Origin: a virus
Taxonomy: Duplodnaviria; Heunggongvirae; Uroviricota; Caudoviricetes
Length of the DNA: 18,585 bases
IMG/VR virus record: IMGVR_UViG_3300028833_000126
Location: 64,716-83,300 of that record
Strand: one strand, 5' to 3'
Shown: positions 1-17,884 of the stretch, in pieces
Layout of the letters: each line of letters starts with the position of its first letter
How positions within the stretch are numbered: position 1 is the stretch's first letter
The notes under the pieces: model-generated
What the model was told of the DNA's origin: nothing
Databases searched by the model: none
The model's input: only the letters and a program-made list of their open reading frames with translations
Made by a program: the position numbers and the translations under genes

Positions 1-3000
1 GCAACGTTATCGCCAACAGACTTGCCGACGTTCTGAGCAGTCTCTTTCGATTCCGGCTCTTCGGTTCCACCTTTTATCTTATCGATGATACTCTTTCCAA
101 GATCTTTTGCTTTACTGACAACGGATTTTGCACCATCAATGATCTTTCCGACAACGGTCTTGAGCGCTTCAACAGCTTCCTCAACCTTACTGGTAAAGCC
201 TTCTTTGAGATTGTCGATGATCTCTTTGCCTCGATCAATGAACTCAGGAAGCTTCTCTTTGACTTTCTCGACAAGATTTGTCATAAATTCGCCAATCGCA
301 AGGAATGCATTCATAGCGAATTCCGCGATACCAGAAGTCAGACCATTAATCATATCTCCTGCGATATTGACGAATTCTTCAGCCTTGTCTTTGTCGACAC
401 CGAGGAAGATCAGAATTGCTTCAACAATGCCTTTGAACAGATTCGTGAAAGCTTCTCTTGCTCTTTCCGCATTGTCGACAATACCCTGTCCAAGACCTTC
501 AATCAAACTCAACACAATGTCAACACCTGCCTGAATGAAGTCGGGCAGGTATGTAGCAATACCGTTAAGAAGATTAAGAACGATCGTTGCTACAGAATCG
601 ATAATACTTCCAGAATGCTCTGCAAGAGTTGCCAGAACGCTATCAATAATAGTGATAACGGTCTCAACAAGCTTCGGAATCAAAACCTGAGCCGCATCGA
701 GAATTGCCGCAGCAACCTTAACAACATTTTCTGCAATAATCGGGGCATTTGTGCCGATAAGCTTAATGATCTCAACTATGCCTTCTCCAATTTTCAGCAC
801 CAATTTCGGTATAAGTTCGATAATCGATGTGATCGCAAGTACTAGCAAAGAAATGCCAGCGCTGCCTACGGCCGCCAATACTTCAAGACCAGTTGCAAAT
901 AATGTAAGTCCTGCTCCGACTCCAAGAACTGCCACTCCAAGAGCAGCAACTGCCACAGACAGTAACAATATCAGCGGTGTAATTGGTCCAAGAAGAAGAC
1001 CAGCAACCCCGACAATCGCAAACACACCTGCTAATGTCACGAGGCTCTTGATAATTTCGCCAAGAGACATGGAACCGAGTATCTGAAGAGATGGAACAAG
1101 GATTAATAATGCTGCAGCGACAGCCGCCAAAGCAACTGAGAACAAAAGGATCATCGGCGAAACAGTACCGAATACAGCTCCAAGACCACCGATAATGGCA
1201 AATGCCGCTGCCATGGTCACTAAGCTCTTTACGATTTCGCCAAGAGCCATAGAGCCAAGCAATTCTAATGATGGAACAAGAAGCAAAAGCGCAGCAGCAA
1301 TTGCGGCAAGAGCAACAGAAAACAGTAAAATCATCGGTGAAACTGTGCCAAATACAGCTCCAAGACCACCAATGATAACAAATGCTGCAGCCATGCTTAA
1401 AAGACTCTTAACGATCTCGCTAAGAGACATGGAACCGAGAAGCATTAACGAAGGCGTCAATAGCATCAGTGCCGCAGCGATTGTTGTCAATGATGCTGCA
1501 AACGCAATTATCGAAAGAGCAAATTTGCCAAGAACGGCTCCAAGGCCTCCGATAATGACGAATGAACCAAACACCATAAGTAAACTCTTTGCAATTTCTG
1601 TGAGGCTCATTTCACTAAAAGTCTTAAGAGGAACCGTCAACAAAATTAATGCAGCAGCCATTGCACCAAAGCCAACAGCTGCAAGAAGTCCGTTTCCTCC
1701 AAACTTGTTCAGCGCAATCATAGCGATTGTAATTTCGGCAAGAGCAAGTCCCATTCCGGCAAGACCATCAACAATGCTATCCCATCCCATTTCTGCAATA
1801 TTCTTTAGCGCAAGAGCAAGAATATTCATCGATATTGTCAAGGCAAGCATCGTAGCACCGGTTCCGCCATGTGAACTGCCAAACTTGTCGATCGCAATGA
1901 CAGCAAGAGACATTTCAGCAAGAGCAACCCCCATACCGACAAGTCCTTTGGTGATGGCTTCCCACTCCATTTTCCCAATACTCTTAAGTGCCTGAGCAAC
2001 AACGAGCATCGAAATGGATAGAGCAATCATTGTGGCACCTTTGCCATTGTTCTTTCCGCCGAACTTGTCAATCGCAACGACAGCAAGAGACATTTCTGCA
2101 AGAGCAAGGCCCATTCCTGCAAGACCATTTTGAATCTGTTCCCACTCAAGTTCACCGATTTTTTTCAAAGCGGCAGCTGCGATATATAAGGAAGCAGCCA
2201 TAGCAATAAGCTGTGTCATCGCATTGTTCGACTTCTTTGCGGTACCGCCGTTAAGCTCATTACTAACAGCCATTGCACCAATGAGTTCGGCAAGAATACC
2301 TGCAACTCCACCAAGCCCAACAGACAATCCTTCTGCATCAACTCCGCTTAACGCAATAAGAGAAGCGGTAATGATGCCTATTGCAACCGCGATCGCAACT
2401 ATATCTCTCGGCTTCACTTTTTTCTGAAAAGATTCGATGGTGTCGCTAATGCTCTCAAATACACCGCCAAACTTTTTCGTCAGATCGCCAACATTAAATA
2501 TGAGTTTAGCAAATCCGGCTTTAATTGCTATTCCAAATCCTTTTGATACAAGATCAAGAATGGAACCAATATCGGCATTCTTGAATGCATTGCCAATCGA
2601 TTCGCCAAGGGCGCCTAACGCTTCACCGGCTTTCGTAATAATAACATCAAATACCGGCTGAAGTTTCTTCAAAACTGTCCAAAGACCACCGAAAAGTTTC
2701 TTTAAACCCTCAAGCAAACTTGCCAACGGCGATAATTTCTTTTCGGCTTTATCACCAAACTCGTCAAACTCTTTTGTCTCATCCTTCTTAAACAGTGCAA
2801 AGAAAGACTTAACATGTCCAATTGCTGCAACAACAAATTCACTGACTTTTTCAAAAACTGTAGCCGCTGTATCGGCAATTTGGTGCAAATTCAGTCCGGT
2901 TACTCTTTGAATCACATCGGCGATCAAATCGAGAATGTCTCTCAGCTTCTGAGTGATGACTGCCGCAATGCCAGAAAGCCCACCGCCAGCATCTCTAAAA

Positions 3001-5381
3001 GTTTGAATTATGTCACTAAACGATAAAAATTTCGCAAGAAACTCGGAAATATCACTGATGATTCCTTTGAATCCATTTACAACTTTTCCAAGCGTCGGCG
3101 AATTAGCAATGAAATCATTGACAGCATCAAGACCCTTCTCGATATTGGCAAAGAAACCCTCGACTCCTTCTCCTTCTTTCCCAATGAGCATGCCGATTCC
3201 ATCGATCATATCATTCCATATGGACGACATTGCATCGCCAAGCGGCTTAAGCCAGTCAACAATGGAACCAAAACGCTCTTCAAATGTGCCGAAAAGTCCC
3301 CAAAATTTTTCACCGAGGCGGTCAAATACTCCATCTGCCTGAAGACTCTCGATTGTTCGCTCAAATTTTAATATTACTTCCCACGCCTTATTGAACGGCT
3401 CAGCCAAGTCGATTCCAGTCCAAGTTTTTACAAGATCAGAAATAAGATTAAACAAATCTCTGATGGAAAAAGCAATAATATTGACAACGCCCGCAATTCC
3501 CTCGCCTGCTTCTCCGAAATATACGAAATATTCATTGAGAGAAAACAGTTTGCCGAAATACTCGCCAATAGATGAGAGGCTCTCTCTTAACTTATGAAAA
3601 ATATCAACGAGCCCATAAATAACAGGATAAGCTTCCTTAAGCTTTTCAAGTTTTCCTCCGGCTCTGCCAGTCTCATCGAAAATCTCGTAAACAGCAGAAA
3701 TACCTTTTAATTTTTGTACAAACGCGTCAATTCCGTCAGATATATCTTCAATTGCAATCAGAATGCCTTTGCCAAAGCCATCGCCCATCTCACCGAACAA
3801 GCCATCCGTGAAGGCACTTGAAAGAGATTTTATCCCATCTGTTACAAACTTGATGACACCAAAAATCTTCTCAAATGCTTCTCCGATTCGTGCCATGGTT
3901 TCTTCACTAATCTGAAGACCTTCAGTAAACGCCTGAAATCTCGCAGTGAGATCGAAAAGCTGCTGCCCGTCTATCGGCTGAAAAATAGCTTCCCATGCTT
4001 CCGTAATCGGATCAATGATATTGCGAGCGGCATGGTAAAGATCCTTAAAAGACTGGATCAGTAACCCTCTGCCGTTTAAACCGTCCGGAGTTTTAATATT
4101 GTTCCAATCCGTCAATAAGTCATTCAGACTGCTCACAGGACCGGCAAAAATATCCCATAATTCATTGGATAATTCAGTCCACATGGTTTTTGCTTCTTCA
4201 TAGTTGCCGAATATCTGTTCGAAGACATTCATCCAACCAGTAGAAACCGCATCTTTGGTAGCATTTACAACATCTTCGAAAGTCTTTGCTTCCTGAGCTG
4301 CAGCAAAAGCACGTCTGCCAAGTTCGTATTCTTCACTGCTGAGCTCGCTGAGATAGGGAAGAATTTCTTCTGCCGCAAGACCTGTCTTTTTAACAACTTC
4401 CTCGATCTCAAGCGTTCCGTCCTCATACTGCTTTATCCACTTGAGTATCTGTGATGTTGTAACATCATAATTTTCATTGAAAACATCATATACTTCATTT
4501 AAGCGACCAGCAAAGCCGCCGAATTTATTCATGGCTTTGATAAGTACATCGCTGTCAAACCACCCGGCCGCAAGCGTCGTTCTGAAGTTTCCTACATTTA
4601 CAAAATTATCTCCGGAATAGTTGCTGGCTGTATTCTGGAGAATATTTCCGTATTTATCGAGTTTGCCAAGCTCAACAGCTGTATCGATGATCGTCTGTTT
4701 GAACTCTTCCGTTGCCATATTCGCATTTTCAACAGACATCCAGTCCTGTAACTTCACAGCACCCATACCGAGCGCCTGTGAGAAGTTATACATTACTCGG
4801 CTGGCGGACTGAGCATTCTGACCAGCAAGTGCTGCTGCAGTGGAAATACCTTCCATCGCTGCAACAGCATCTTCCAATTCAACGCCCTGAGACGTGAATT
4901 TACCGATACTATTAGTCATATCGGTAAAGTTATAAGAAGTCTCGTCAGTAAACCAGTTCAGCGTTTTTAGTTTCTCAGAAACATCATCGATACTGCGGCC
5001 TGTGGCATTCATGATTGTTTGCACAGCGGTCGTTTTCTCGCCGTACTTACTGAATCCTTCAGTTACCTGATCGATGGACACTTCTTTGAGCTTGTCGATA
5101 ACATACGAACTCGCAGCTGCTCCTATATTCATAAGAGCCCCAACGGCAACTGTCTCAAGCGCTGAGAATTTGTTGCCAAGCCCATCAAGCGCATCTGACA
5201 TACCGTGCAAATTGACTTTATCAGCAGCCGAAGAGATACCGGAGAATGCTTTCTCCACACCATCGAAGTTAAGCGCGCTCTTAAGCTTGTCGAGCGTAGA
5301 CATACTCTGCGATACATTTGACTCGAAATCTCGGTTATCAAATCGCATCTCTACGACTTTTTCATCGATTGTTCTAGCCAA
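1..5381 (-). CDS. Tape measure protein, 3' end truncated by the window edge (about 1793 codons visible)
   Basis: Absent from the ORF track because it has no stop in the window. TTG start at 5381 after GGAGGAGGTG. N-terminus MARTIDEKVVEMRFDNRDFESNVSQSMSTLDKLK is typical of sipho tape measures. Frame spot-checked open near 5300, 4600, 3400, 1200 and 1-60, not codon by codon. Ala/Gly/hydrophobic repeats; expected position after the tail chaperones. Confidence 0.93.
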   Translation of the reverse strand, partial: MARTIDEKVVEMRFDNRDFESNVSQSMSTLDKLKSALNFDGVEKAFSGISSAADKVNLHGMSDALDGLGNKFSALETVAVGALMNIGAAASSYVIDKLKEVSIDQVTEGFSKYGEKTTAVQTIMNATGRSIDDVSEKLKTLNWFTDETSYNFTDMTNSIGKFTSQGVELEDAVAAMEGISTAAALAGQNAQSASRVMYNFSQALGMGAVKLQDWMSVENANMATEEFKQTIIDTAVELGKLDKYGNILQNTASNYSGDNFVNVGNFRTTLAAGWFDSDVLIKAMNKFGGFAGRLNEVYDVFNENYDVTTSQILKWIKQYEDGTLEIEEVVKKTGLAAEEILPYLSELSSEEYELGRRAFAAAQEAKTFEDVVNATKDAVSTGWMNVFEQIFGNYEEAKTMWTELSNELWDIFAGPVSSLNDLLTDWNNIKTPDGLNGRGLLIQSFKDLYHAARNIIDPITEAWEAIFQPIDGQQLFDLTARFQAFTEGLQISEETMARIGEAFEKIFGVIKFVTDGIKSLSSAFTDGLFGEMGDGFGKGILIAIEDISDGIDAFVQKLKGISAVYEIFDETGRAGGKLEKLKEAYPVIYGLVDIFHKLRESLSSIGEYFGKLFSLNEYFVYFGEAGEGIAGVVNIIAFSIRDLFNLISDLVKTWTGIDLAEPFNKAWEVILKFERTIESLQADGVFDRLGEKFWGLFGTFEERFGSIVDWLKPLGDAMSSIWNDMIDGIGMLIGKEGEGVEGFFANIEKGLDAVNDFIANSPTLGKVVNGFKGIISDISEFLAKFLSFSDIIQTFRDAGGGLSGIAAVITQKLRDILDLIADVIQRVTGLNLHQIADTAATVFEKVSEFVVAAIGHVKSFFALFKKDETKEFDEFGDKAEKKLSPLASLLEGLKKLFGGLWTVLKKLQPVFDVIITKAGEALGALGESIGNAFKNADIGSILDLVSKGFGIAIKAGFAKLIFNVGDLTKKFGGVFESISDTIESFQKKVKPRDIVAIAVAIGIITASLIALSGVDAEGLSVGLGGVAGILAELIGAMAVSNELNGGTAKKSNNAMTQLIAMAASLYIAAAALKKIGELEWEQIQNGLAGMGLALAEMSLAVVAIDKFGGKNNGKGATMIALSISMLVVAQALKSIGKMEWEAITKGLVGMGVALAEMSLAVIAIDKFGSSHGGTGATMLALTISMNILALALKNIAEMGWDSIVDGLAGMGLALAEITIAMIALNKFGGNGLLAAVGFGAMAAALILLTVPLKTFSEMSLTEIAKSLLMVFGSFVIIGGLGAVLGKFALSIIAFAASLTTIAAALMLLTPSLMLLGSMSLSEIVKSLLSMAAAFVIIGGLGAVFGTVSPMILLFSVALAAIAAALLLLVPSLELLGSMALGEIVKSLVTMAAAFAIIGGLGAVFGTVSPMILLFSVALAAVAAALLILVPSLQILGSMSLGEIIKSLVTLAGVFAIVGVAGLLLGPITPLILLLSVAVAALGVAVLGVGAGLTLFATGLEVLAAVGSAGISLLVLAITSIIELIPKLVLKIGEGIVEIIKLIGTNAPIIAENVVKVAAAILDAAQVLIPKLVETVITIIDSVLATLAEHSGSIIDSVATIVLNLLNGIATYLPDFIQAGVDIVLSLIEGLGQGIVDNAERAREAFTNLFKGIVEAILIFLGVDKDKAEEFVNIAGDMINGLTSGIAEFAMNAFLAIGEFMTNLVEKVKEKLPEFIDRGKEIIDNLKEGFTSKVEEAVEALKTVVGKIIDGAKSVVSKAKDLGKSIIDKIKGGTEEPESKETAQNVGKSVGDNV
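940..2130 (-). repeat. Degenerate repeats with ~180-nt (60-aa) period inside the tape measure gene
   Basis: aatacagctccaagaccacc at ~1171 and ~1351, degenerate at ~1531. agagacatggaaccgag at ~1064 and ~1424. gcaagagcaa-n-n-cccat at ~1738, ~1918 and ~2099. Boundaries approximate. Confidence 0.8.
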
Positions 5382-5754
5382 CGCGCTTCACCTCCTCCCA
5401 TGCCTCTTCAGCGATTTTTTCAAAAACAGGGCGGAGTGCAGGGTTGATATAGTCGATGCCCTGCACATACCCGCCATTTCTTGTAGCATGCCCATACTGC
5501 AATATGACTGCAATTGGAACTCCATTTTGAACGTTCGTATTGTTAAACATGATGGACACGCTCCCGTCTCCGCGTGTAACACGATATTCCCAGGAATCCG
5601 CGGTTAATCCTGTATCTTTAGGCGTCGCAGATCTGAGCGCAGTAACGCCTTCCTCGCCGTATTTGTCAAGGATTCCAACATCGAAGCCTTTATTGACCTT
5701 CAGCAAATAGTTTGTGAGTGTCTTAAAATCGCCTTTCTGTTTGAACTTAATCAT
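5374..5754 (-). CDS. HK97 gp10-like neck/tail completion protein (126 aa)
   Basis: AAAGGAGG RBS. Sequence LRSATPKDTGLTADSW...GHATRNGGYVQGIDYINPALRPVF resembles the TPxDTG-type gp10-like family. Overlaps the tape measure start by 8 nt. Confidence 0.7.
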   Translation of the reverse strand: MIKFKQKGDFKTLTNYLLKVNKGFDVGILDKYGEEGVTALRSATPKDTGLTADSWEYRVTRGDGSVSIMFNNTNVQNGVPIAVILQYGHATRNGGYVQGIDYINPALRPVFEKIAEEAWEEVKRVG

Positions 5755-8232: not shown

Positions 8233-10242
8233 TTATTCCCCCACCACGTGCTCAACGACGATCGCAGAATTCGGCTTAACAAGAGTACCGGACTCACGAG
8301 TCTCGATAAGGTACTCAAGCTTGTTGAAGTCGATATCGAAGTCATCAAACCAGTTGACCTGACCACCCTTGTCGTTACCGACGTTATAGTCGTTGAGGTC
8401 GACAATGATTGCATCAAGAACTCTGGTAGCACCAGACACTGTTCTGGTCTTGTTCTTCATGACCGGAACGCCGACAACATTGTCAACGAGCATCGCAGAA
8501 GCAAGCTCCGCCTTGGACTTGTAAAGTCTGTGACCGAAACCATCCTCAAGAAGCATCAGATCGGAGAGTTTATCCGTCGCAATGAATGCGGTCGTGTTGC
8601 CAGAGCCATCGTAATCGTCAAAGCCCTTAACGGCAGCACGAATGACGCCCTTAGCGATGTCTTCAGTAGTAGCGTTAGCCGGAACAGTAAAGACGGCGTT
8701 GACAGCAAAGAGATCTTCCATGGTCCAAATCGGACGGATCTTGGTCTCGTCGATCTTGCCGGGAGCAGAGATACCGCGACCGTCACCAATCAGGTAAGCG
8801 CGAGCACGCTCCTCATCGAGCTTAAGCTTCATTTCAGCCTTCAGCCATGCAACAACGTCGAAATCGGTGATGTCGAGAACGTCATCGCGGTCGATCTTCT
8901 GGAGCTTGTAGATGGTAGTGGCAGGAGTCTCACGCTTAAGGAGAGCGATGACCTCTTCAACCTTCTCAGTGCCCTTTGCATAACCCTTTGCACGAGCTTC
9001 ATCAGGAGTGATGTCAGCAAAGATGGATCTGATACGGGAGAACGGGGTGTGATGAACACCATTCATGACAGTTGTAACCCAGTTCTGGTTTTCCTTAATG
9101 AGCTCAGGGCGGTTAGTATAGTTCTTGTAATCGGGATACGCATTGCTAATGTCGGTGATGCCGTGCTTGAGAACAGCTTCTTTCAGGCTGCCCATCTTCT
9201 TCGCGTCATTGAGGATCTCAATCTGCTCGGCGTGGGTGAGAACTTCCTCGTTCTCCTTGGTCTTTTCGAAAACATTGTATTCCATGTTATTACCTCCTTC
9301 GGTATTTTCAGAAATGTTAGAATCGTTGTGGGTGATTTCTTCCTCTTCGTCAGAGTGCTTTGTGTCAGCCTTTTCAGCTTCAATCCTTGCCTGGCCAACA
9401 AGAAGGTAGAAGACGTTCTTCTGCTCTTCGGTCATAGTATTGATGATGTCTTCAACGGTCTCTTCAGAGTCATCGCTAGAATCATCCGCATGGTTTGCTT
9501 CATCAGGATCTTCATCGTCCGAATCTTCAGAGCCATCATCAGTCAGAGCGAGACCGATGAATGCATAAAGAAGATCTTTCTGCTTCTTGTTGAAAGATTT
9601 CACAACATCAGCAACGGTCTTTTCATGTTTCTCTTCGGTCTTCGGCTCAGGCTCGTTGTCCGCATGAGAAACCTCTTCGGTTTTCTTTTCGGGCTCGCTA
9701 GTTTCTTCGGACTTGACCTCGGTCTCGGTGTTCTGTTCTTCAGACTGTTCCTCGGATTCTTTCTCAGGCTCTTCTTTCATGTCCGGATCAACGTGCTCAA
9801 GATCGATAAACTCATTCATAAAAATGATAGCTTCGCCTTCGGAAACTTCTCCGTGACGAATCACCTCATCGATATGAGCGCCGGAATTTGCACCGGCAAG
9901 CACAAGAGACACTTCTTTGATCTCGCCGTGAAGAACGTCTCCACCATTCTGCTTGAGATGTGTTGCGCAGATGGACAGAGAGTCCACATCGCCATGAAGA
10001 ACGGCAAGCTTAGCACTCTGAGCCTTCTTAGTTTCATTGAACGAACAGTAAGCATAAACGCCCTCATCTTCGTTATGAAGCAGGGCGTTTCCGAGAACAT
10101 TTTCGGGATCGTTATGCTGATGATTCCATACAAGCGGAACCGTCTTGCCGTCACATTCTTTAAATGCGTCTTTTCGGATAGTTCGACCGTCAGTGCAGAG
10201 AATGTTATTCTTTGTCGCCCATCCGCTAAAATCATAAGACAT
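8233..10242 (-). CDS. Prohead protease-scaffold-major capsid protein fusion (669 aa)
   Basis: AAGGAGG RBS. N-terminal ~130 aa has HK97-type protease motifs (VPLVWNH, DSLSI, EVSLVLAGAN). An acidic low-complexity linker follows, then a ~350-aa capsid-like domain (YKLQKIDRDD, RAYLIGDGR, FDDFDIDFNKLEYLIETRESG). Confidence 0.9.
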   Translation of the reverse strand: MSYDFSGWATKNNILCTDGRTIRKDAFKECDGKTVPLVWNHQHNDPENVLGNALLHNEDEGVYAYCSFNETKKAQSAKLAVLHGDVDSLSICATHLKQNGGDVLHGEIKEVSLVLAGANSGAHIDEVIRHGEVSEGEAIIFMNEFIDLEHVDPDMKEEPEKESEEQSEEQNTETEVKSEETSEPEKKTEEVSHADNEPEPKTEEKHEKTVADVVKSFNKKQKDLLYAFIGLALTDDGSEDSDDEDPDEANHADDSSDDSEETVEDIINTMTEEQKNVFYLLVGQARIEAEKADTKHSDEEEEITHNDSNISENTEGGNNMEYNVFEKTKENEEVLTHAEQIEILNDAKKMGSLKEAVLKHGITDISNAYPDYKNYTNRPELIKENQNWVTTVMNGVHHTPFSRIRSIFADITPDEARAKGYAKGTEKVEEVIALLKRETPATTIYKLQKIDRDDVLDITDFDVVAWLKAEMKLKLDEERARAYLIGDGRGISAPGKIDETKIRPIWTMEDLFAVNAVFTVPANATTEDIAKGVIRAAVKGFDDYDGSGNTTAFIATDKLSDLMLLEDGFGHRLYKSKAELASAMLVDNVVGVPVMKNKTRTVSGATRVLDAIIVDLNDYNVGNDKGGQVNWFDDFDIDFNKLEYLIETRESGTLVKPNSAIVVEHVVGE
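9283..9299 (-). promoter_or_regulatory. Internal in-frame translation start (AAGGAGGT-6 nt-ATG at 9285) for a 350-aa capsid protein
   Basis: Minus strand GAAGGAGGTAATAACATGGAA: perfect SD with 6-nt spacing, at the linker/capsid boundary (M320). Confidence 0.75.
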
Positions 10243-10260: not shown

Positions 10261-12552
10261 CTACAGATTTTTCTTACCCTTATAGACTACAGTGGTAGAT
10301 TTTTCTTTGCTTCCACTGGAGCCCTTGGTTTTCTTTGTGGTCTGATACTTTGCCTGAGACTTGATCTGCTCGAGTTCTTCTTCATACATCTTTTTATACT
10401 CATCACGAACCTGCTGACTGTAGTCTTTGTGTTCCTGTTTGAGCCTATCAGATGTATCTTTATGCTCCTGCTTCACCTGCTTAGAGGTGGCCTTATGGTC
10501 TTCACGCAGCTTGCTTGTCTTGCTCGAGTGACTCTGACGCTCAGCATCCGCAGTCATTTTGTGCAGTTCATTGAGATCGTTTCTCTGAGATTTGAATTCT
10601 TCAGAAAGCTCTTCTCTCTTCGCCTTGTTATCAGCTCTGAGTTGAGCAATTTCTTCGTTGATCATCTCTCTTTGATTTGCCTTCTCGGACTTATCAAGAC
10701 CTTTGAGGTAGTCCTTAAGCGCGTCAATTCTGGACTGCATCTGATTCTTATGCGATTCAACCTCAGTCTTCATGCGCTCACGACGAGTCTCGATAGATCT
10801 GTCTCGATTAGCTTTTGAAGACTCGATCATGCGATCGCGATTCGCCTTTGAAGCTTCGATTGCCGCATTCATGCCTTCTTTCGAGGCTTCGACGCGTTGA
10901 CTCGCGGAATCCTTGCTTGACTCGATGTTACTGTCCATCTGAGTCTTGTGTGCATTGATCTTCGCATTGCGCTCGCTGTTATACTGCTCCCTCGCATAGC
11001 GCGCTGCGGCTCTTCCTTCTTCGTTCAGACCTTTGGTAGACGATCTTTCATAGTCTTTATGAAGGCCCTTCTTTTCGAAGTTGATGTAGTACAAGTGCCT
11101 GCGCTCAGGATCATAATCGCTTGCGTGAAAGAAGTCCTCGTCATCATCGGAATGACTTACAGAGTCAGAATTAACAGTTTTCTCGAGAGCATTGAGCTGC
11201 TTATCGACATCATCGAACTGTTTAACCAATTCGAGGTATTCCACTTCAGTCATCGGCTCTTCTTGAGTTTCCTCATCAGACGCATCCTCTTCGTACTCTG
11301 TTCCATCCTCAGGCGCCTCTTCGTCTGTCGGTACCATAGGACCACCAGTGGTATCGTAGAGGTTCTTGTTTCTGAGCGTGTCCGCATTCGGATCATCCGA
11401 GGGCTTCATACCGATTGCCTGACGAATCTCATTGGATGTAACGATCTCGTTTCTCGTGAGCTTATCTGCAATCTCAGCAATCTGATCCATCGGGACAAGA
11501 GCAAGAGGATCTCTGAAGTATTCGATGGATTGCCTCTGAGAGATGGCAGTCTTTGTGAGAAATGTTCGCTTCATGCTGTCAGCAACAGCAGCCACAAGCG
11601 GCTCAATAACACGATTGTTATAATTGAGCATTGTTTTCTCATCGGCAGTACCATTCAGAATCTCGGGTGTAACGCCAACCTGTGAATAAGCAAGATCTGT
11701 GAGATACTGAATCTGACCAAGAAGATTATTCTCGAGAGGACGGTTAAGCTGCTGAATCCGTTCAGTACCATCTGTGTAAGCGATACCGTATTTTGATCCG
11801 GAAAGCTGCCGTTCGATCTCATTCCTTCTGATCTCTGCCTGCTGTCGCTTCTGCTCTGTCTTAACAACATAAGGAAGCTGAATAATCAGATCAAGCTTAC
11901 CGGAAGACGACTGCTCATCGACTGCATCGAGAAGTGCGAGTTTATGTGTCAATCTCTGGAATGTCGAGTTCGGCTCATTCATGATGGAGTAGAATGGGTT
12001 CTCTACAATTGCCACGATCTTCTTCGGAACAATAACGTCCTCTCGAAGACCGGTGTTTTCATTGTAGACGTTCACTTTCACCATCTTGCTTCGCCATTCA
12101 ACGATCTTGCCGACACGCATATTGTTGATCGAGTAAGTACCTGAAATCTCAGGGTCAAATGTGGTGTCAATCGGAACAAGAGCAATGGCTCCTTCATCAA
12201 GAAGCGATAAAAAAATATTCAGACGAAACGCACGCCCCGTCTGATCGATATTTGCTTCGAGATTAAGACAACGGTTGAGACCGGAGTCAATAGTTTCAAC
12301 ATATCTGTCATTCTCGTCGAGTCTGACATGCTGAATTACTACCTGCGCTGCATCAACAGCGATTCTGTTTTTTAATACGGTTACGATCGACTTGTCAGAC
12401 AAAGCGTTATAATATGCTCCGCTGATATAGCCCGGGCGATAACCGTCAAGACCGCCATAACTCCAGTCTCGCATTCGTCTTTCGTCCGTCGGGTCACGGC
12501 TCTTGAAGACGTTCCAGGCATGTTTCAGCCTGTTCGCAAAAGAAAGTTCCAT
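10261..12552 (-). CDS. Portal protein with long C-terminal acidic plus coiled-coil extension (763 aa)
   Basis: AAGGAG RBS; sits between the terminase block and the protease. Portal-like core of ~400 aa (LNRCLNLEANIDQTGRAF, SLLDEGAIALVP, LTRNEIVTSNEIRQAIGMKP), then a ~340-aa extension. Confidence 0.9.
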   Translation of the reverse strand: MELSFANRLKHAWNVFKSRDPTDERRMRDWSYGGLDGYRPGYISGAYYNALSDKSIVTVLKNRIAVDAAQVVIQHVRLDENDRYVETIDSGLNRCLNLEANIDQTGRAFRLNIFLSLLDEGAIALVPIDTTFDPEISGTYSINNMRVGKIVEWRSKMVKVNVYNENTGLREDVIVPKKIVAIVENPFYSIMNEPNSTFQRLTHKLALLDAVDEQSSSGKLDLIIQLPYVVKTEQKRQQAEIRRNEIERQLSGSKYGIAYTDGTERIQQLNRPLENNLLGQIQYLTDLAYSQVGVTPEILNGTADEKTMLNYNNRVIEPLVAAVADSMKRTFLTKTAISQRQSIEYFRDPLALVPMDQIAEIADKLTRNEIVTSNEIRQAIGMKPSDDPNADTLRNKNLYDTTGGPMVPTDEEAPEDGTEYEEDASDEETQEEPMTEVEYLELVKQFDDVDKQLNALEKTVNSDSVSHSDDDEDFFHASDYDPERRHLYYINFEKKGLHKDYERSSTKGLNEEGRAAARYAREQYNSERNAKINAHKTQMDSNIESSKDSASQRVEASKEGMNAAIEASKANRDRMIESSKANRDRSIETRRERMKTEVESHKNQMQSRIDALKDYLKGLDKSEKANQREMINEEIAQLRADNKAKREELSEEFKSQRNDLNELHKMTADAERQSHSSKTSKLREDHKATSKQVKQEHKDTSDRLKQEHKDYSQQVRDEYKKMYEEELEQIKSQAKYQTTKKTKGSSGSKEKSTTVVYKGKKNL

Positions 12553-12570: not shown

Positions 12571-13104
12571 TTAAACCGTGTTGACTGACTTCTTACGATA
12601 AGCAATACGCCCGGATCCATAAACGCCGCGTTTTACCTGACTGAGATCATAGCCTTCATCAGCAAGAGCCATGTGAACGCCCATCTCTCCTCGTTTAGCG
12701 ACCCACTTGACAAGTTTTCCGGAAGGGGCTCTGACGTCTCTCGCGTTCCTGTTCATGATCTCGGCAAGTCCCTGATTGTAAGCATTCACATAGTTATAGC
12801 TTAACTTTCCACTCTTCAATCTGCTGTCGAGTGTCTGGTTAAGCTCTTTAGCGAATTCTTTAATCTCTTTCTTGCTGTCTTTAAAGGCTTGGTTATAGAT
12901 CCTATCGTAATTCTTTTTTGCCCATTTGCTGTCTTTTTTCTCGAGGCGCTTCTGGTCTTTCAATGTATTCCCTTCTTCTCTGGTAGTAAAGTCTTCGTCA
13001 TATCTCTTTCTACCAGCAGGAGTAAGGGTACCATCTTTATTCTGGAATCGTCTGATACCCCAGTGCATTCCCAGAATGCCATGATGATTCAGTTCATCCG
13101 CCAT
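12571..13104 (-). CDS. Leader-motif protein A (177 aa; start MADELNHHGILGMHWG), function unknown
   Basis: AAGGAGG RBS before the ATG at 13104. The leader resembles the HHGxxGMKWG N-terminal domain I recall as DUF7211 (unverified). Basic C-terminal region. Confidence 0.85.
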   Translation of the reverse strand: MADELNHHGILGMHWGIRRFQNKDGTLTPAGRKRYDEDFTTREEGNTLKDQKRLEKKDSKWAKKNYDRIYNQAFKDSKKEIKEFAKELNQTLDSRLKSGKLSYNYVNAYNQGLAEIMNRNARDVRAPSGKLVKWVAKRGEMGVHMALADEGYDLSQVKRGVYGSGRIAYRKKSVNTV

Positions 13105-13126
13105 TGAACCGCCTCCTTCTAGTGTA

Positions 13127-13672
13127 TTATTTTTTATTTTTATCGGAATACTGCTTCTCAGCATATGCAATCTCCGAATAATATGTGTCCATAAAAGGAG
13201 CATTCTTAACCCAATCCATTGACTTTTCAACGGGATGCTTGCCAAACATGTCCTCCAAGGCCTTCGTGTATGACGTGGTCCATAAGTCGTTAACCTCGTT
13301 CAAATACTTAATGCCCTCTTTGGTAGCAAAGCCATTTCTGAAATCACTATCTTTGTATTTTTCATTTATGGCACTAATATTTGCATTAAATGGCTCATTG
13401 GCTTTGTTATACGCTTTCCACCAATTATTGGCTACATTCCGATTAAACTGTGTGGCTGCTTTTTGCTCTTGCTTTGCCTGCTTCTTTTCCTGCTTCTCTA
13501 AACGCTTCTGGTCTTTCAGGGTATTCCCTTCTTCCTTGGTAGTAAAGTCTTCATCATATCTTTTTCTACCGGCAGGAGTAAGGGTGCCATCTTTGTTCTG
13601 GAATCGTCTGATACCCCATTTCATTCCGAGAATGCCGTGATGTTCGAGTTCGTCCGTTTTGATATATTCCAT
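13127..13672 (-). CDS. Leader-motif protein B (181 aa; start MEYIKTDELEHHGILGMKWG), function unknown
   Basis: GAGGAGG about 11 nt before the ATG at 13672; same leader, unrelated C-terminal region. Confidence 0.85.
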   Translation of the reverse strand: MEYIKTDELEHHGILGMKWGIRRFQNKDGTLTPAGRKRYDEDFTTKEEGNTLKDQKRLEKQEKKQAKQEQKAATQFNRNVANNWWKAYNKANEPFNANISAINEKYKDSDFRNGFATKEGIKYLNEVNDLWTTSYTKALEDMFGKHPVEKSMDWVKNAPFMDTYYSEIAYAEKQYSDKNKK

Positions 13673-13697
13673 TGGGATGAGGCCCTCCTCTATATAG

Positions 13698-14183
13698 TTA
13701 GTCATACCATTCGGGACTTCGCAGAATAGTAGCCGTTGTACTGACAGTTTCAAGATGAGGTCCCATGACATCTCTGATTTTATTGACGGTGCTAACAACC
13801 GTTGACACAGCACCGGTAACGGCGGCAATCGTTCCGGCAGTTTTTACGAATTTATCGACATAATCTTTACCGCTTTTCTTTGCAACACTGTCCTTTGTCA
13901 TTTTTTCGTACTGCTTTTCGAGATTTAGCCGATTGACGATCTGCTGAAGCTCTTTGGTATCATACTCTTTAACCGACTTGCCAGAATGCGCCTGCTTGTA
14001 ATCATCATGCTCTTTTCCGGCATTTTTAAGAGTATTTCCTTCTTCTCTGGTAGTAAAGTCTTCATCATATCTCTTTCTACCAGCAGGAGTAAGGGTACCA
14101 TCTTTGTTCTGGAATCTTCTCACACCCCACTTCATTCCAAGAATGCCATGGTGTTCCAGTTCATCAGTTTTATTATACTCCAT
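13698..14183 (-). CDS. Leader-motif protein C (161 aa; start MEYNKTDELEHHGILGMKWG), function unknown
   Basis: GAGGAGG RBS before the ATG at 14183; same leader; C-terminal amphipathic/hydrophobic helix (FVKTAGTIAAVTGAVSTVVSTV). Confidence 0.85.
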   Translation of the reverse strand: MEYNKTDELEHHGILGMKWGVRRFQNKDGTLTPAGRKRYDEDFTTREEGNTLKNAGKEHDDYKQAHSGKSVKEYDTKELQQIVNRLNLEKQYEKMTKDSVAKKSGKDYVDKFVKTAGTIAAVTGAVSTVVSTVNKIRDVMGPHLETVSTTATILRSPEWYD

Positions 14184-14211
14184 TTTGATTTTCAACCTCC
14201 TCTCTGCTCGA

Positions 14212-15270
14212 TTAAATGTAATGCACAGCCTTAAGCCAGCCCGGCATCCACTCAAAGACCATAAAGCGCTTATGCGCTCCGACAAATCCTTCGTCCTCAG
14301 ACCACTTATCTGTTTCGCCATTTCTGGACAGCCTGCGGATCATGACGCCATAAAGGTCACCTTCAGTTTCATGATGTAAATGGCCGGCGTGAATCTCTCG
14401 AACTGTGGATTCAGAGAATTCCTTCGGAAACTCAATTGTAAACTGGCCGCGCAAATCATGGAACTTGTTCTTCATGTAATGCCCATGCGTAACGCCGATA
14501 AAGCAGCCGTTCCAATAAATGCACTTGCGCTGTTTCAGGCTGTCATCGACTTCGACCTGCGGATAGTGGTCTTTCAGCATCTGCACGAAGCACCACGCTA
14601 GGCTCTCATCGTGATTGCCAATTGAGTAAATCAGCTTCACTCGCTCAGCTTGTCGGAGAGAGGTGTCGATCACGTTATACCAGATTGTCTTCGCCATTTG
14701 CCATGCGGCAGCAACGTCAACCTTCTCAATCACTCTGCCTGATGCGGTTCTGCCTCTCATGTCATCATTGTGGAACAAATCCTGTCCAATAATAATATTG
14801 ATCTCATTCCATTTCTGACGATTGATAATTCCGAGAAGAAGCTCAATGCTCTTCAGATGATCGGAGAGAGGAAGATGCATATCATAAAGCGGAATCTCAA
14901 GCATGCCTTCACCGTCACCAGTAACCGGATCTATTTTGATTGGCTCCGTGTTCTCGTGAATTACATCAAGCAATGCGTCCCATTGACTATCGTCAAGAGT
15001 TTGCTTGATCCATGCCTGAACGATCTCGCCCTTGTCGTTTACCTGAACGGTTGCATCGTGGGCAGTAAAGCCCTCATAAGTTCCACTGTCGAGCGTAAAC
15101 TTGTCTGGGTGAACTTTACTGCGCCATTTGCGCATTGTTCTTCTGAATGACTCATAAGTCGTGTCAGGATAATCATCGTGAAAGAGTTCTAGATAAATCT
15201 TCTTGATTGGCTGCCCATTGTTGTAGGCACTCATGCATCGTTTCTTTGTTTCAATGTCAACGGCTCGCAA
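14212..15270 (-). CDS. Calcineurin-like metallophosphoesterase with possible N-terminal helical/HTH-like region (352 aa, TTG start)
   Basis: GGAGGTGA SD 7 nt before the TTG at 15270. Metal-binding motifs in order: YDMH, GQDLFHND, IGNHDE, VTHG, HAGHLHH. Confidence 0.82.
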   Translation of the reverse strand: MRAVDIETKKRCMSAYNNGQPIKKIYLELFHDDYPDTTYESFRRTMRKWRSKVHPDKFTLDSGTYEGFTAHDATVQVNDKGEIVQAWIKQTLDDSQWDALLDVIHENTEPIKIDPVTGDGEGMLEIPLYDMHLPLSDHLKSIELLLGIINRQKWNEINIIIGQDLFHNDDMRGRTASGRVIEKVDVAAAWQMAKTIWYNVIDTSLRQAERVKLIYSIGNHDESLAWCFVQMLKDHYPQVEVDDSLKQRKCIYWNGCFIGVTHGHYMKNKFHDLRGQFTIEFPKEFSESTVREIHAGHLHHETEGDLYGVMIRRLSRNGETDKWSEDEGFVGAHKRFMVFEWMPGWLKAVHYI

Positions 15271-15289
15271 TAGGCAGTCACCTCCCTTA

Positions 15290-17038
15290 TCAAGATTCAA
15301 AAGCGTCACGGTTGGCTTTATATGCCACATAGGCGTCCATCAAAGCTGCAACTGAGTCAATTTTCTGGTCATACCGCTTCTTCATAAGTTTGCGGTTGCC
15401 GTTCGTATCTTCGACCGTGATACAGTTCCCCATTGCAAATGTCATGAGCTGCTCATCGAAGATCAGCATCCGCTCACCAGCAAGTTTCTTGAGCTCGCCA
15501 AGAGGTACAGATTCGGTCTTGGCGCCCTGAATGACTTTCTCAACGCCGAATGAACCATTCTCGGTGATCCATCGCTCGACAAACTCTCTCGCATTATACG
15601 GGTCATAGCCAAAGCACCTGACATCATACTCCTTTTCGGTGATATGACGGTCAAGATCTTCGTAAACTTCAATCATGTCAAGGACAGTGCCTTCCATGAC
15701 CACAAGAGAACCTTCAGCCATGAACTCCTCATACTTCTGCCTCAGAGCTGCCTGTAACTTGCTCATGGTGAGTGATGTAATGTATGCTCGCGTCTTCACA
15801 CCATAACAGCCGTTCGATAGCGGGAACAAGAAGGTGAATGCGCAGAAGTCGTCACCAAGCGATAGGTCTGCACCAAGTGCGCAAGGCATTGACCAGAAGT
15901 CTCTCGGACGGTGAACCTTCGTCTCCTCATATGTGAAGTAATACGTGTAGCCCTCCATAGGAATGCCGAACCTCTTCGCAAGAATATCGTTGCGGGCGGA
16001 AGGAACCTTCTCTGCTCTCTCGACATCGAGCTGGTAGACATCGTAAGTGACTGTCTTCCCGAGATTCGGATTACACTTGAGCCACATGTTCGGCTTGCCG
16101 ACTTCATCAATATTGTCGAGCTTGTACCACCAGATAGAGACATGCGGGTTGATGTACTCGCCTTTGAGGATCTGCATAAGCTCCATTTTGATTGCGTCAC
16201 CAACACCGTTACGCACAGTGCCTTCAGAACTTGTCGCGATGATGATGTAATCTTCAAGCTTGGACGCACCTTGCTCAATAGGGCCTATGACATCCTCATT
16301 CACATCTCCAGAAAGCCACTCGTCGATCGTTGCTACCTTGCATCGCAGACCCTGAAGTCTGTCAACACTCATGGGTCGGATCTCAAGAAGCGATCCATTA
16401 AGGAAATTCTCGATTCCCTTCTTCGTCGAAGCGAGCTTAACACGTTTGGCTTTTGAACCGGTTGTGTTCTGGAGAGAACCTTCTGTCAGAAAACGAAAAA
16501 GCGGCCCACGAGACCGTGTGATGGCTGTCCGAATGGGGTTAAGCACCTCATCAGCCTGTCGCATGGTCGGAGCCGTCGTAATCTGGTTTGTTGTTGAAGA
16601 GTCTGAATTCAAGAAATAGGCCTGAATGCTCGAGGCATACATTGACTTTGCCGCACCTCGTCCGACAATCAGATACTGCTTGTGGCAAAGACGTTTCCGA
16701 ATTCTCTTTCGAACATATCGTCCACCATGTCCATCAGACCGTGGCTCGTAGACAGTTCTTTCATCAAAGTAGTACCATCCGAGAAGATCTTCTCCCCATA
16801 ACTTGAAGGAAGGAAGAAGCGTCATGTCTGAACCGTCTGTCAGAGTAAGCTCATTCTCACAGAACTTCACCCAACGCTCGACAGGTTCAGGGTCATAGTA
16901 GTAGTTCGGACTTCGGATCAAGTAGTCAATCCGGTTCATCTGCAATGAGATTTCACGGTTTACGGGTATTTCACCCCTGATAACGGCATCCCTGAACTTG
17001 CCGTAATACTTTGGGACGGCAGTGTTCGATAATGCCAT
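15290..17038 (-). CDS. terL: Terminase large subunit (582 aa)
   Basis: AAAGGAG RBS. Walker A-like GRGAAKS, Walker B VATIDE, coupling motif ATSSEG, RNase H-like nuclease acids (GADLSLGDD, KIDSVAALMDA). Confidence 0.95.
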   Translation of the reverse strand: MALSNTAVPKYYGKFRDAVIRGEIPVNREISLQMNRIDYLIRSPNYYYDPEPVERWVKFCENELTLTDGSDMTLLPSFKLWGEDLLGWYYFDERTVYEPRSDGHGGRYVRKRIRKRLCHKQYLIVGRGAAKSMYASSIQAYFLNSDSSTTNQITTAPTMRQADEVLNPIRTAITRSRGPLFRFLTEGSLQNTTGSKAKRVKLASTKKGIENFLNGSLLEIRPMSVDRLQGLRCKVATIDEWLSGDVNEDVIGPIEQGASKLEDYIIIATSSEGTVRNGVGDAIKMELMQILKGEYINPHVSIWWYKLDNIDEVGKPNMWLKCNPNLGKTVTYDVYQLDVERAEKVPSARNDILAKRFGIPMEGYTYYFTYEETKVHRPRDFWSMPCALGADLSLGDDFCAFTFLFPLSNGCYGVKTRAYITSLTMSKLQAALRQKYEEFMAEGSLVVMEGTVLDMIEVYEDLDRHITEKEYDVRCFGYDPYNAREFVERWITENGSFGVEKVIQGAKTESVPLGELKKLAGERMLIFDEQLMTFAMGNCITVEDTNGNRKLMKKRYDQKIDSVAALMDAYVAYKANRDAFES

Positions 17039-17061
17039 TTTGATTTTCTCCTTTCAAGGGC

Positions 17062-17090
17062 TTTACAAGTCTTGCGATTTATGGTATAAT
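17062..17090 (+). promoter_or_regulatory. Near-consensus sigma70/sigmaA promoter, antisense to the structural operon
   Basis: TTTACA (17062-17067), 17-nt spacer, TATAAT (17085-17090), with extended -10 TG at 17082-17083, in an AT-rich intergenic gap. Confidence 0.7.
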
Positions 17091-17108
17091 CAATTAATTA
17101 AAAAATAT

Positions 17109-17840
17109 TCAGATGCGCCTCGATCTATTCGCGCCAAGAAGTCTGTGAACCTCACTGTAAATCTCGTCAGATAACTGATCGAAGTCGCTCTGTTGCTGTT
17201 TCTTCTTTTTCTTGCTAGACTGCTGCTGATTATTCGAAGAAGACTGGGAATTATTAGAGCTATTCGACATTCCAGCAAGTCCGACTTTAAGACTTCTAAT
17301 GCCTTCCTCTATCGAGTCCAGACGTTCATTAACCTTATTGTCTTTCTTATTATTTTTGTTTTCTTTGTCATTATTATCTTTGTTGTCTTCATCTTCAAGA
17401 TGCAGTGCTTTTCTCATCTTCTTCTTAAGATACTGAGCACCTACATCCTTGGCAGACATATAGAAGATCTCACCAATCAGCTTTCGACCGGCAGACATTT
17501 CTTTCTTCTCTTTTTGCTTCGGCTGCTGCACCTGAGGCTGTGCCTGAACCTGCTGCGGTTGCGGCTGAGGAGTTGTGAGCTGAATATAGCGTCTCTCCAT
17601 ATCAAGTCGGTTAAGAGCAGCTCTCAGCTCATCATCAGTCATAGCATATACAGGCTTCACATAAGTCTGATTCTGGAAAGAAGAGCCATTATAGGAATAT
17701 CCAGACCCGGTCTGAGATGCTGGCTCATCCACGCCATATCTTTTACGTCCGGCAGGAGTGAGAGTGCCATCAGGATTCTGGTATCGCCTGACACCCCATT
17801 TCATACCGAGGATACCATAGTGCATAAGCTCATCATTCAT
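17109..17840 (-). CDS. Leader-motif protein D (243 aa; start MNDELMHYGILGMKWG), function unknown
   Basis: AAGGAGG RBS before the ATG at 17840; same leader; PQ-rich, N/D/K-rich and S/N/Q-rich low-complexity tracts. Confidence 0.85.
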   Translation of the reverse strand: MNDELMHYGILGMKWGVRRYQNPDGTLTPAGRKRYGVDEPASQTGSGYSYNGSSFQNQTYVKPVYAMTDDELRAALNRLDMERRYIQLTTPQPQPQQVQAQPQVQQPKQKEKKEMSAGRKLIGEIFYMSAKDVGAQYLKKKMRKALHLEDEDNKDNNDKENKNNKKDNKVNERLDSIEEGIRSLKVGLAGMSNSSNNSQSSSNNQQQSSKKKKKQQQSDFDQLSDEIYSEVHRLLGANRSRRI

Positions 17841-17884
17841 AGGATCGCCTCCTTCTTTAGTATTTTGCATAAGGATGTTATATA

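Follow-up and report, generated by a model that had tools for sequence, protein, structure and literature searches.

In phage T4, the internal proteins IPI-III and Alt carry a capsid targeting sequence (CTS), which the gp21 prohead protease removes by cutting at L/I-x-E. Prohead proteases of the assemblin fold follow rules with a hydrophobic residue at P3, V/L-x-A↓S in herpesviruses and L/I-x-E↓ in T4 gp21 (the arrow marks the cut, below also a putative one); no prohead protease for which His has been reported at P1 is known to us. The MuF domain is a folded domain of ~300 residues (PF04233). Proteins of the MuF/SPP1 gp7 kind are reportedly phage-packaged polymorphic toxins, which Jamet and colleagues are said to have described in 2017. 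Here we describe a short N-terminal leader shared by four proteins, A to D, of a tailed phage. Their genes lie in an 18,585-nucleotide stretch (the window) that forms the right end (64716-83300) of the 83.3-kb IMG/VR virus record IMGVR_UViG_3300028833_000126, a record that is complete according to CheckV. The best reading of this leader is that it marks proteins carried inside the phage head. We give this reading about an even chance, on the basis of sequence comparison and the annotation of one phage record.

Proteins A-D were encoded by four minus-strand open reading frames (ORFs), and each of these opened with (D)EL-x-H-[HY]-GILGM[KH]WG[VI]RR[FY]QN-x-DGTLTPAGRKRY. Alignment of the leaders gave 28 invariant columns in the first 35 residues and confirmed that A-D share them, as the initial annotation of this DNA had claimed. 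Its further statement that the proteins diverge after the leader needed correction, as A, B and C remained alike over ~55 residues (through ...EEGNTLKDQKRLEK), not just ~35. Upstream of each gene, 6-10 nt from the ATG, lay a ribosome-binding site of the GGAGG type, in agreement with the good sites noted earlier. An alternative start of D at an ATG at 17870 was rejected because it would translate the ribosome-binding site itself, and the start was placed at 17840.

The earlier guess that the motif was already catalogued as a domain family proved right. The leader corresponds to Pfam DUF7211 (PF23847), a 25-position profile with a gathering cut-off of 27 bits. Pfam scores for the proteins were 42.6 bits for D, 37.8 for C, 30.7 for B and 26.3 for A, which fell just under the cut-off because of a K-to-H change in GMHWG. 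In a DNA-level search of the 83.3-kb record all four passed the cut-off, and no further DUF7211 copies were found beyond A-D in the whole record. Codon differences within the leader were mostly synonymous (18 synonymous and 4 nonsynonymous of 33 codons for C versus D; 8 and 2 for A versus B), and therefore the peptide itself is under selection and is not only a recent duplicate. Recent duplication as the sole cause of the similarity was rejected on these grounds and on the 73-76% DNA identity of D to A-C. An ordinary secretion signal was also rejected, since the leader lacks a hydrophobic core and is basic and Trp/Gly-rich. Proteins A-D were basic (isoelectric point (pI) 8.6-9.9; D 9.5). The leader was unfolded in both AlphaFold2 (AF2) models, those of A and C, with a predicted local distance difference test score (pLDDT) <50 for the leader of A, as expected of a docking peptide.

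A leader profile search returned 29,331 clusters at 50% identity (E ≤ 0.001). We collected 268 distinct leader ORFs from 160 related loci for a census. In these, the leader His lay 4-13 residues after the start, and L-x-H-[HYFW]-G was nearly invariant. The consensus, M-x(4-12)-[DEN]-x-L-x-H-[HY]-G-[IV]-x-G-M-[KR]-W-G-x-R-[RK], describes a linear motif of ~20-35 residues. The C-terminal parts of the 268 ORFs formed 92 clusters (116 ORFs of C/D type, 17 of A type, 75 singletons). A constant, selected peptide on 92 kinds of C-terminal part bears out the earlier claim of an N-terminal module on varied cargo. Pfam analysis of 47 variable leader proteins showed one ADP-ribosyltransferase domain, one GNAT acetyltransferase domain and, in the others, DUF7211 only. 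The DUF7211-related PHROGs were 32444, 7021, 11022, 14126 and 7502, and the hosts named in phage records were Lactococcus, Faecalibacterium, Streptomyces, Arthrobacter, Gordonia, Microbacterium, Curtobacterium and Rhodococcus.

DUF7211 is a catalogued family without an assigned function. Literature searches on the family name, the motif, capsid targeting, protease-capsid fusions, proteomics of phages 1706 and P087, and virion polymerases found no description of DUF7211 or of the leader, and an Arthrobacter phage paper notes the capsid-protease fusion only. New beyond the database entry are the census, the multi-leader polyproteins and the link to His sites described below.

Like the T4 CTS, the leader is a short N-terminal peptide common to unrelated and mostly basic proteins whose genes lie with head genes. 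Both have a hydrophobic-x-[specific residue] element near the end of the peptide, and the ADP-ribosyltransferase among the cargo of relatives recalls Alt. The leader differs in that it has no sequence similarity to the CTS, its specific residue would be His rather than Glu, its conserved part follows the candidate cut instead of preceding it and probably remains on the protein, protease and capsid protein form one fusion, and the system is known here from sequence alone. With MuF/SPP1 gp7 it has in common a constant N-terminal part, swappable C-terminal domains and a gene beside the portal gene. The leader, however, is a linear motif of ~25 residues, and PF04233 had no match (Pfam) in A-D, where DUF7211 was the sole Pfam hit, or in the 47 variable relatives, so that membership in the MuF family was rejected.

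The bodies of A-D were less diverse than the four unrelated domains first described. C and D share a second helix motif, T-x-EL-x4-NRL-x-(L/M)E-x2-Y, along with PHROGs 32444 and 7021, and this C/D type is the commonest leader family. The C-terminal domain of A belongs to a conserved family with 179 relatives, and most of the 120 listed bear the DUF7211 annotation. Genes of the A type are usually the last before the portal gene. The A domain was modelled by AF2 as a small helix and hairpin at pLDDT 74-91. When PDB and BFVD were searched for similar folds with this model, nothing reached E ≤ 0.001, and the weak BFVD rows were other leader proteins. Only B carries an orphan domain, with just 2 database entries for residues 62-181. 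The AF2 model of C was extended and helical (predicted template modelling score (pTM) 0.28), and its hydrophobic helix reached a Kyte-Doolittle maximum of 1.43 at residues 112-130. D was mostly disordered, basic and of low complexity; an ESM Atlas look-up returned only DUF7211 clusters and a poor model (pLDDT 0.52, pTM 0.16).

Leader genes keep to a narrow part of the genome. In loci with both a terminase and a portal gene, 182 of 194 leader ORFs lay upstream of the terminase or between terminase and portal, and DUF7211 copies occurred near the terminase in all four cultured relatives tested (P118, 2; FP_oengus, 1; Qui, 9; 1706, 2). The earlier placement of A-D in a packaging/head operon agrees with their interspersion among the genes for terminase, portal and protease-capsid fusion. 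No small terminase was recognisable in the window by Pfam and PHROG scans, and in 62 of 97 loci the terminase gene had a leader ORF ending ≤500 nt upstream of it (C/D type in 41); P118, Qui and 1706 show the same placement. D and the other C/D types could thus be the missing small terminase or another packaging accessory, with the basic leader as a DNA-binding arm. We regard this as very improbable. This phage has two C/D copies and Qui up to nine leader genes, and C/D modules also occur inside polyproteins. Neither C nor D matched a helix-turn-helix or a small-terminase family (Pfam, PHROG), and D is largely disordered and of low complexity. The 1706 homologue, orf7, is labelled structural, which small terminases are not.

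The leader travels with one head module, in which the head protease is joined through an acidic linker to the major capsid protein. We fetched loci from bacterial assemblies by the leader alone; among the 43 of at least 15 kb, 37 held the fusion within 10 kb, 40 a terminase and 27 the polymerase. In 400 evenly sampled Clostridia genomes, DUF7211 and the fusion were present in the same 2 genomes, and neither was found alone in any. These samples, which were biased or small, support the co-occurrence of leader and fusion that the initial annotation had raised. Two loci, L137 and L113, were considered as true fusion-less exceptions and rejected, because their leader genes are at a tail position and the L137 contig holds the fusion elsewhere (L150).

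We observed a repeated His motif in the fusion and in the portal protein. Linker residues 131-360 of the window's fusion had a net charge of -50, a pI of 4.2 and 8 His. Of the nine linker-region His, H130 included, eight were in a hydrophobic-x-H context, the exception being EEKH; H130, H150, H337 and H360 were conserved in homologues, and VLKH↓GITD sits at the start of the capsid fold. The 398 linker His of 67 distinct fusion homologues shared one context, [DE]-x-V-[LMIV]-x-H-[GSAN]-[DEVI], with L/M/I/V/A/F at P3 in ~97% and G/S/A/N at P1' in 92%. In the portal protein, the sites SVSH↓SD and FFH↓AS stand just before a C-terminal extension of 293 residues (471-763; window 10264-11142, minus strand), which is basic (pI 9.2), repeat-rich and coiled-coil. 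His motifs in the scaffold (linker) and the portal extension, as reported earlier, were thus present, and that of the linker recurred across the 67 homologues. Among the real genes of this genome, only those for the fusion and the portal had several hydrophobic-x-His sites.

Hydrophobic-x-His followed by G/S/A/N looks like the site of the head protease. Its layout, hydrophobic-x-H↓small, has the same P3/P1/P1' arrangement as the sites of assemblin-fold proteases; the difference is the His at P1, which is assigned by analogy only and is most likely the P1 residue here. The portal extension looks like a second route for protein into the head, fused to the portal and then cut off. Portals of FP_oengus and other relatives are ~420 residues long and have no such extension. 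At fusion residues ~315-325 (window 9283-9299, minus strand), the conserved M-K-H-N-V-F reads NNMEYNVF here, after GG-rich codons that resemble a ribosome-binding site; in relatives this spot is M-K-H↓N, a protease-type site.

The leader was compared with these sites by a position matrix built from the linker His sites. On the P side, true sites scored 5.7, the leader 3.7 and background His -6.1. The top-scoring leader representatives were single chains with 2-5 leaders. One of them, a 1335-aa chain with five leaders, occupies the exact place of A-B-C between terminase and portal, and its junctions (M-T-H↓S, I-S-H↓S and A-R-H↓S) resemble the linker of the adjoining fusion. In 150 representatives, a full site was found ≤40 residues upstream of 56% of the 198 internal leaders, versus 0.03 expected, usually 5-25 residues before the leader His. 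Such polyproteins are not a gene-calling artefact, as they are open under table 11 without stops on their contigs. A gene array thus seems able to stand in for a cleavable polyprotein and vice versa, a sign of processing by the head protease. Because the full sites lie upstream of the internal leaders, released modules would keep the pre-His segment and the leader. The GILGMKWG part is probably retained on the mature protein, unlike the T4 CTS, judging from the position of these sites. The T4-like removal of the leader suggested by the earlier analogy is not supported by the complete sites 5-25 residues upstream of internal leaders. One leader gene of L137 begins MNNFREFSRQYNDYLMH↓ASS, a pre-His segment with a full protease-type site where the leader body would otherwise be; the segment recurs later with a true leader.

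A variant of the leader was found on a two-barrel RNA polymerase encoded outside the window, on the strand of gene D and, on a circular map, ~3.5 kb upstream of it. The polymerase has helix-turn-helix modules at both ends, and its N-terminus is the leader variant DILQHYGMPRRSGRYPWGSG, conserved as DIL-x-HYG-[MV]-[PK]-RRSGRYPWGSG. Profile-profile comparison with the leader aligned 11 columns, with only x-x-L-x-H-[HY]-G-hydrophobic in common (P = 1.3e-4). A polymerase-type variant, with the start MNNELYH-YGVPKRSGRYPWGSG, also stands on a small unrelated protein of 184 residues (L092:2500-3054), whose gene adjoins that of a three-leader polyprotein.

One possibility is that the proteins are virion-internal and the leader is a retained working module, which binds DNA or the portal/tail channel, or serves in exit from the head and action at the host membrane. 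Loading would then depend on other features, for example bulk charge complementarity with the acidic linker. The conserved GILGMKWGVRR follows the candidate cut and probably stays, and the leader is basic and rich in W, R and K. The C/D type ends in a hydrophobic helix, related proteins of Arthrobacter phage Qui are annotated as membrane proteins, and some leader genes adjoin the tape measure gene. A working module would, however, be unexpected on partners as unrelated as an ADP-ribosyltransferase, a GNAT domain and, as a variant, an RNA polymerase. Leader and polymerase have only x-L-x-H-[HY]-G in common, which speaks for a handling signal rather than for a fold that binds DNA or membranes. 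We consider the retained module unlikely, though it deserves to be kept in view.

Annotation of a cultured relative bears on where these proteins reside. In the record of Lactococcus phage 1706 (EU081845), orf7 encodes 462 residues with two DUF7211 copies directly upstream of the terminase and is labelled 'structural protein'. The same label is given to orf75, the homologue of the polymerase (36% identity, E 1e-164). Predicted functions in this record are marked 'putative' and those of orf7 and orf75 are not, which suggests an experimental basis for them. Two small proteins of the replication/early region, orf62 and orf71 (record L173), are also labelled 'structural protein', which suggests that the 1706 labels derive from virion mass spectrometry and not from gene position.

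These labels also bear on whether A-D and their relatives are late cytoplasmic effectors that are left unpackaged, the leader binding a host or phage target and the position in the head module giving late timing only. Many leader proteins are small, basic and disordered, and toxin-like domains occur among them, as this explanation would have it. Yet the two-leader protein and the polymerase homologue of 1706 are labelled structural, the polyprotein junctions have sites of the head-protease kind, a protease that works inside proheads, and the coupling to one head module is tight. We judge the chance that the proteins are such effectors to be small.

In the cargo-tag reading, which we favour, the leader motif would be a common handle that takes a core set (the A and C/D types) and changing accessory proteins into the assembling head. 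The lineage concerned would be that of the Gram-positive siphophages Lactococcus 1706, Faecalibacterium FP_oengus and actinophage clusters AM/AU/AW/DJ/BI, in which the two-barrel RNA polymerase would carry a variant form of the handle. The capsid-fused protease and its highly acidic linker would line the inside of the head in several hundred copies, and the protease most likely cuts after His at hydrophobic-x-His↓small-residue sites. Cutting would release the capsid protein and the extension at the portal C-terminus, and in relatives also the modules of polyproteins with several leaders. The L-x-H of the leader resembles the site upstream only, so GILGMKWG would probably stay on the mature internal protein, and the internal proteins may then be delivered with the DNA. 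We infer the role of the leader as a loading signal, the His as P1, any cleavage and injection. Observed are the motif with its selection and N-terminal place, its genomic link to this head module, the uniform His sites, the polyprotein junctions and the labels of the 1706 record. The charges, with basic A-D (pI 8.6-9.9) versus a linker of pI 4.2, also count for this reading.

Several observations weigh against the cargo-tag reading. The earlier link of the leader EL-x-H to the protease His motif held on the upstream P side and failed on the P' side, where true sites scored 3.3, the leader -8.6 and background His -4.0. The leader His is always followed by H/Y/F/W-Gly, versus G/S/A/N-(D/E/V/I) in the sites. 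The conserved part of the leader lies after the candidate cut, unlike the T4 CTS, and no other full protease-type site was found in A-D. Some leader genes have other positions, either after a head-tail connector gene or between the genes for the major tail protein and the tape measure; L137:9629-10612 and L137:9029-9616 are two of the latter kind, in the slot usual for chaperones, and the tape measure there has 2647 residues. The hydrophobic C-terminal helix of the C/D type and its frequent small-terminase slot (41 of 97 loci) allow other roles. The sample of leader-fetched loci was biased to close leaders. The Clostridia sample was very small, and one of its 2 positives was the search centre, which leaves one independent genome. 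The basis of the 'structural protein' labels in the 1706 record is assumed.

The mismatch after the His could have a function of its own. The leader may be a non-cleavable substrate mimic, in which [DEN]-x-L-x-H fits the S side of the His-specific, capsid-fused protease and the bulky H/Y/F/W-Gly keeps the protease from cutting. The protease domains that line the prohead would then hold the cargo, the virion RNA polymerase among it, and let it go once the protease has digested itself. A complex prediction of the whole fusion with a 50-residue leader, both entered as alignments, was uninformative (score 0.00, partner pLDDT ~30). The mimic is a long shot; if true, loading would work by docking on the protease, and the leader would be a portable tag for bringing proteins into the heads of a very large group of Gram-positive phages.

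The window comes from an already described lineage, that of 1706/FP_oengus/actinophages, which has a protease-capsid fusion and a two-barrel RNA polymerase. In its capsid, protease, virion, terminase and polymerase passages, the preprint on this supercluster (bioRxiv 10.1101/842583) gives a putative two-barrel RNA polymerase as the signature and holds nothing on the leader family or His sites. The terminase, portal, protease-capsid fusion and polymerase of our phage are signature genes of this supercluster. The fusion protein had 244 relatives in cultured phages of Arthrobacter, Gordonia, Streptomyces, Lactococcus, Faecalibacterium and others.

All morphogenesis genes of the window are on the minus strand, in the order D, large terminase, phosphoesterase/exonuclease-like gene, C, B, A, portal, protease-linker-capsid fusion, connector and tail genes, and a very long tape measure gene (Table 1). 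The phosphoesterase/exonuclease-like gene overlaps the terminase end by 41 nt and is rare at this position, with homologues in 2 of 76 leader-fetched loci. A hydrophobic unit rich in glycine and alanine (…EIVKSL…AAFAIIGGLGAVFG…) recurs in the tape measure as about five near-repeats.

Table 1. Coordinates of the leader genes and their neighbours; positions are those of the window unless another sequence is named.
Feature	Position	Strand	Remarks
Gene D, 243 aa	17109..17840	-	Leader residues 1-35 = 17736-17840; adjoins large terminase, directly upstream
Large terminase subunit	15290..17038	-	Pfam TerL_nuclease 1.3e-29; phrog_9 8e-105
Phosphoesterase/DNA-repair-exonuclease-like gene	14212..15330	-	Between terminase and leader array; phrog_704 8e-52
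Gene C, 161 aa	13698..14183	-	Leader 14067-14183; helix motif KELQQIVNRLNLEKQYEKM; C-terminal hydrophobic helix
Gene B, 181 aa	13127..13672	-	Leader 13556-13672; orphan C-terminal domain
Gene A, 177 aa	12571..13104	-	Leader 13000-13104; conserved helix + beta-hairpin domain
Portal protein, 763 aa	10261..12552	-	Pfam Phage_portal 2.7e-17
Fusion of head protease, acidic linker and major capsid protein, 669 aa	8233..10242	-	phrog_3270 5e-198; Pfam Phage_capsid
Tape measure protein, 2194 residues in genome	3-5381	-	Runs past window edge
Two-barrel RNA polymerase, 958 residues	G000 2847-5723	-	Outside window (locus L006); phrog_4291, labelled RNA-dependent RNA polymerase

Cultured relatives exist, so that the idea of a cargo tag is directly testable. 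If true, it would define a hydrophobic-x-His rule for head proteases, none such being known to us, and would provide a practical tag to load foreign proteins into phages of Gram-positive bacteria. One short peptide would explain the way in which a very large lineage of phages fills its heads with changing proteins, among them enzymes, toxin-like domains and its own RNA polymerase. Such proteins would be active at the very outset of infection, when host takeover and counter-defence are settled.

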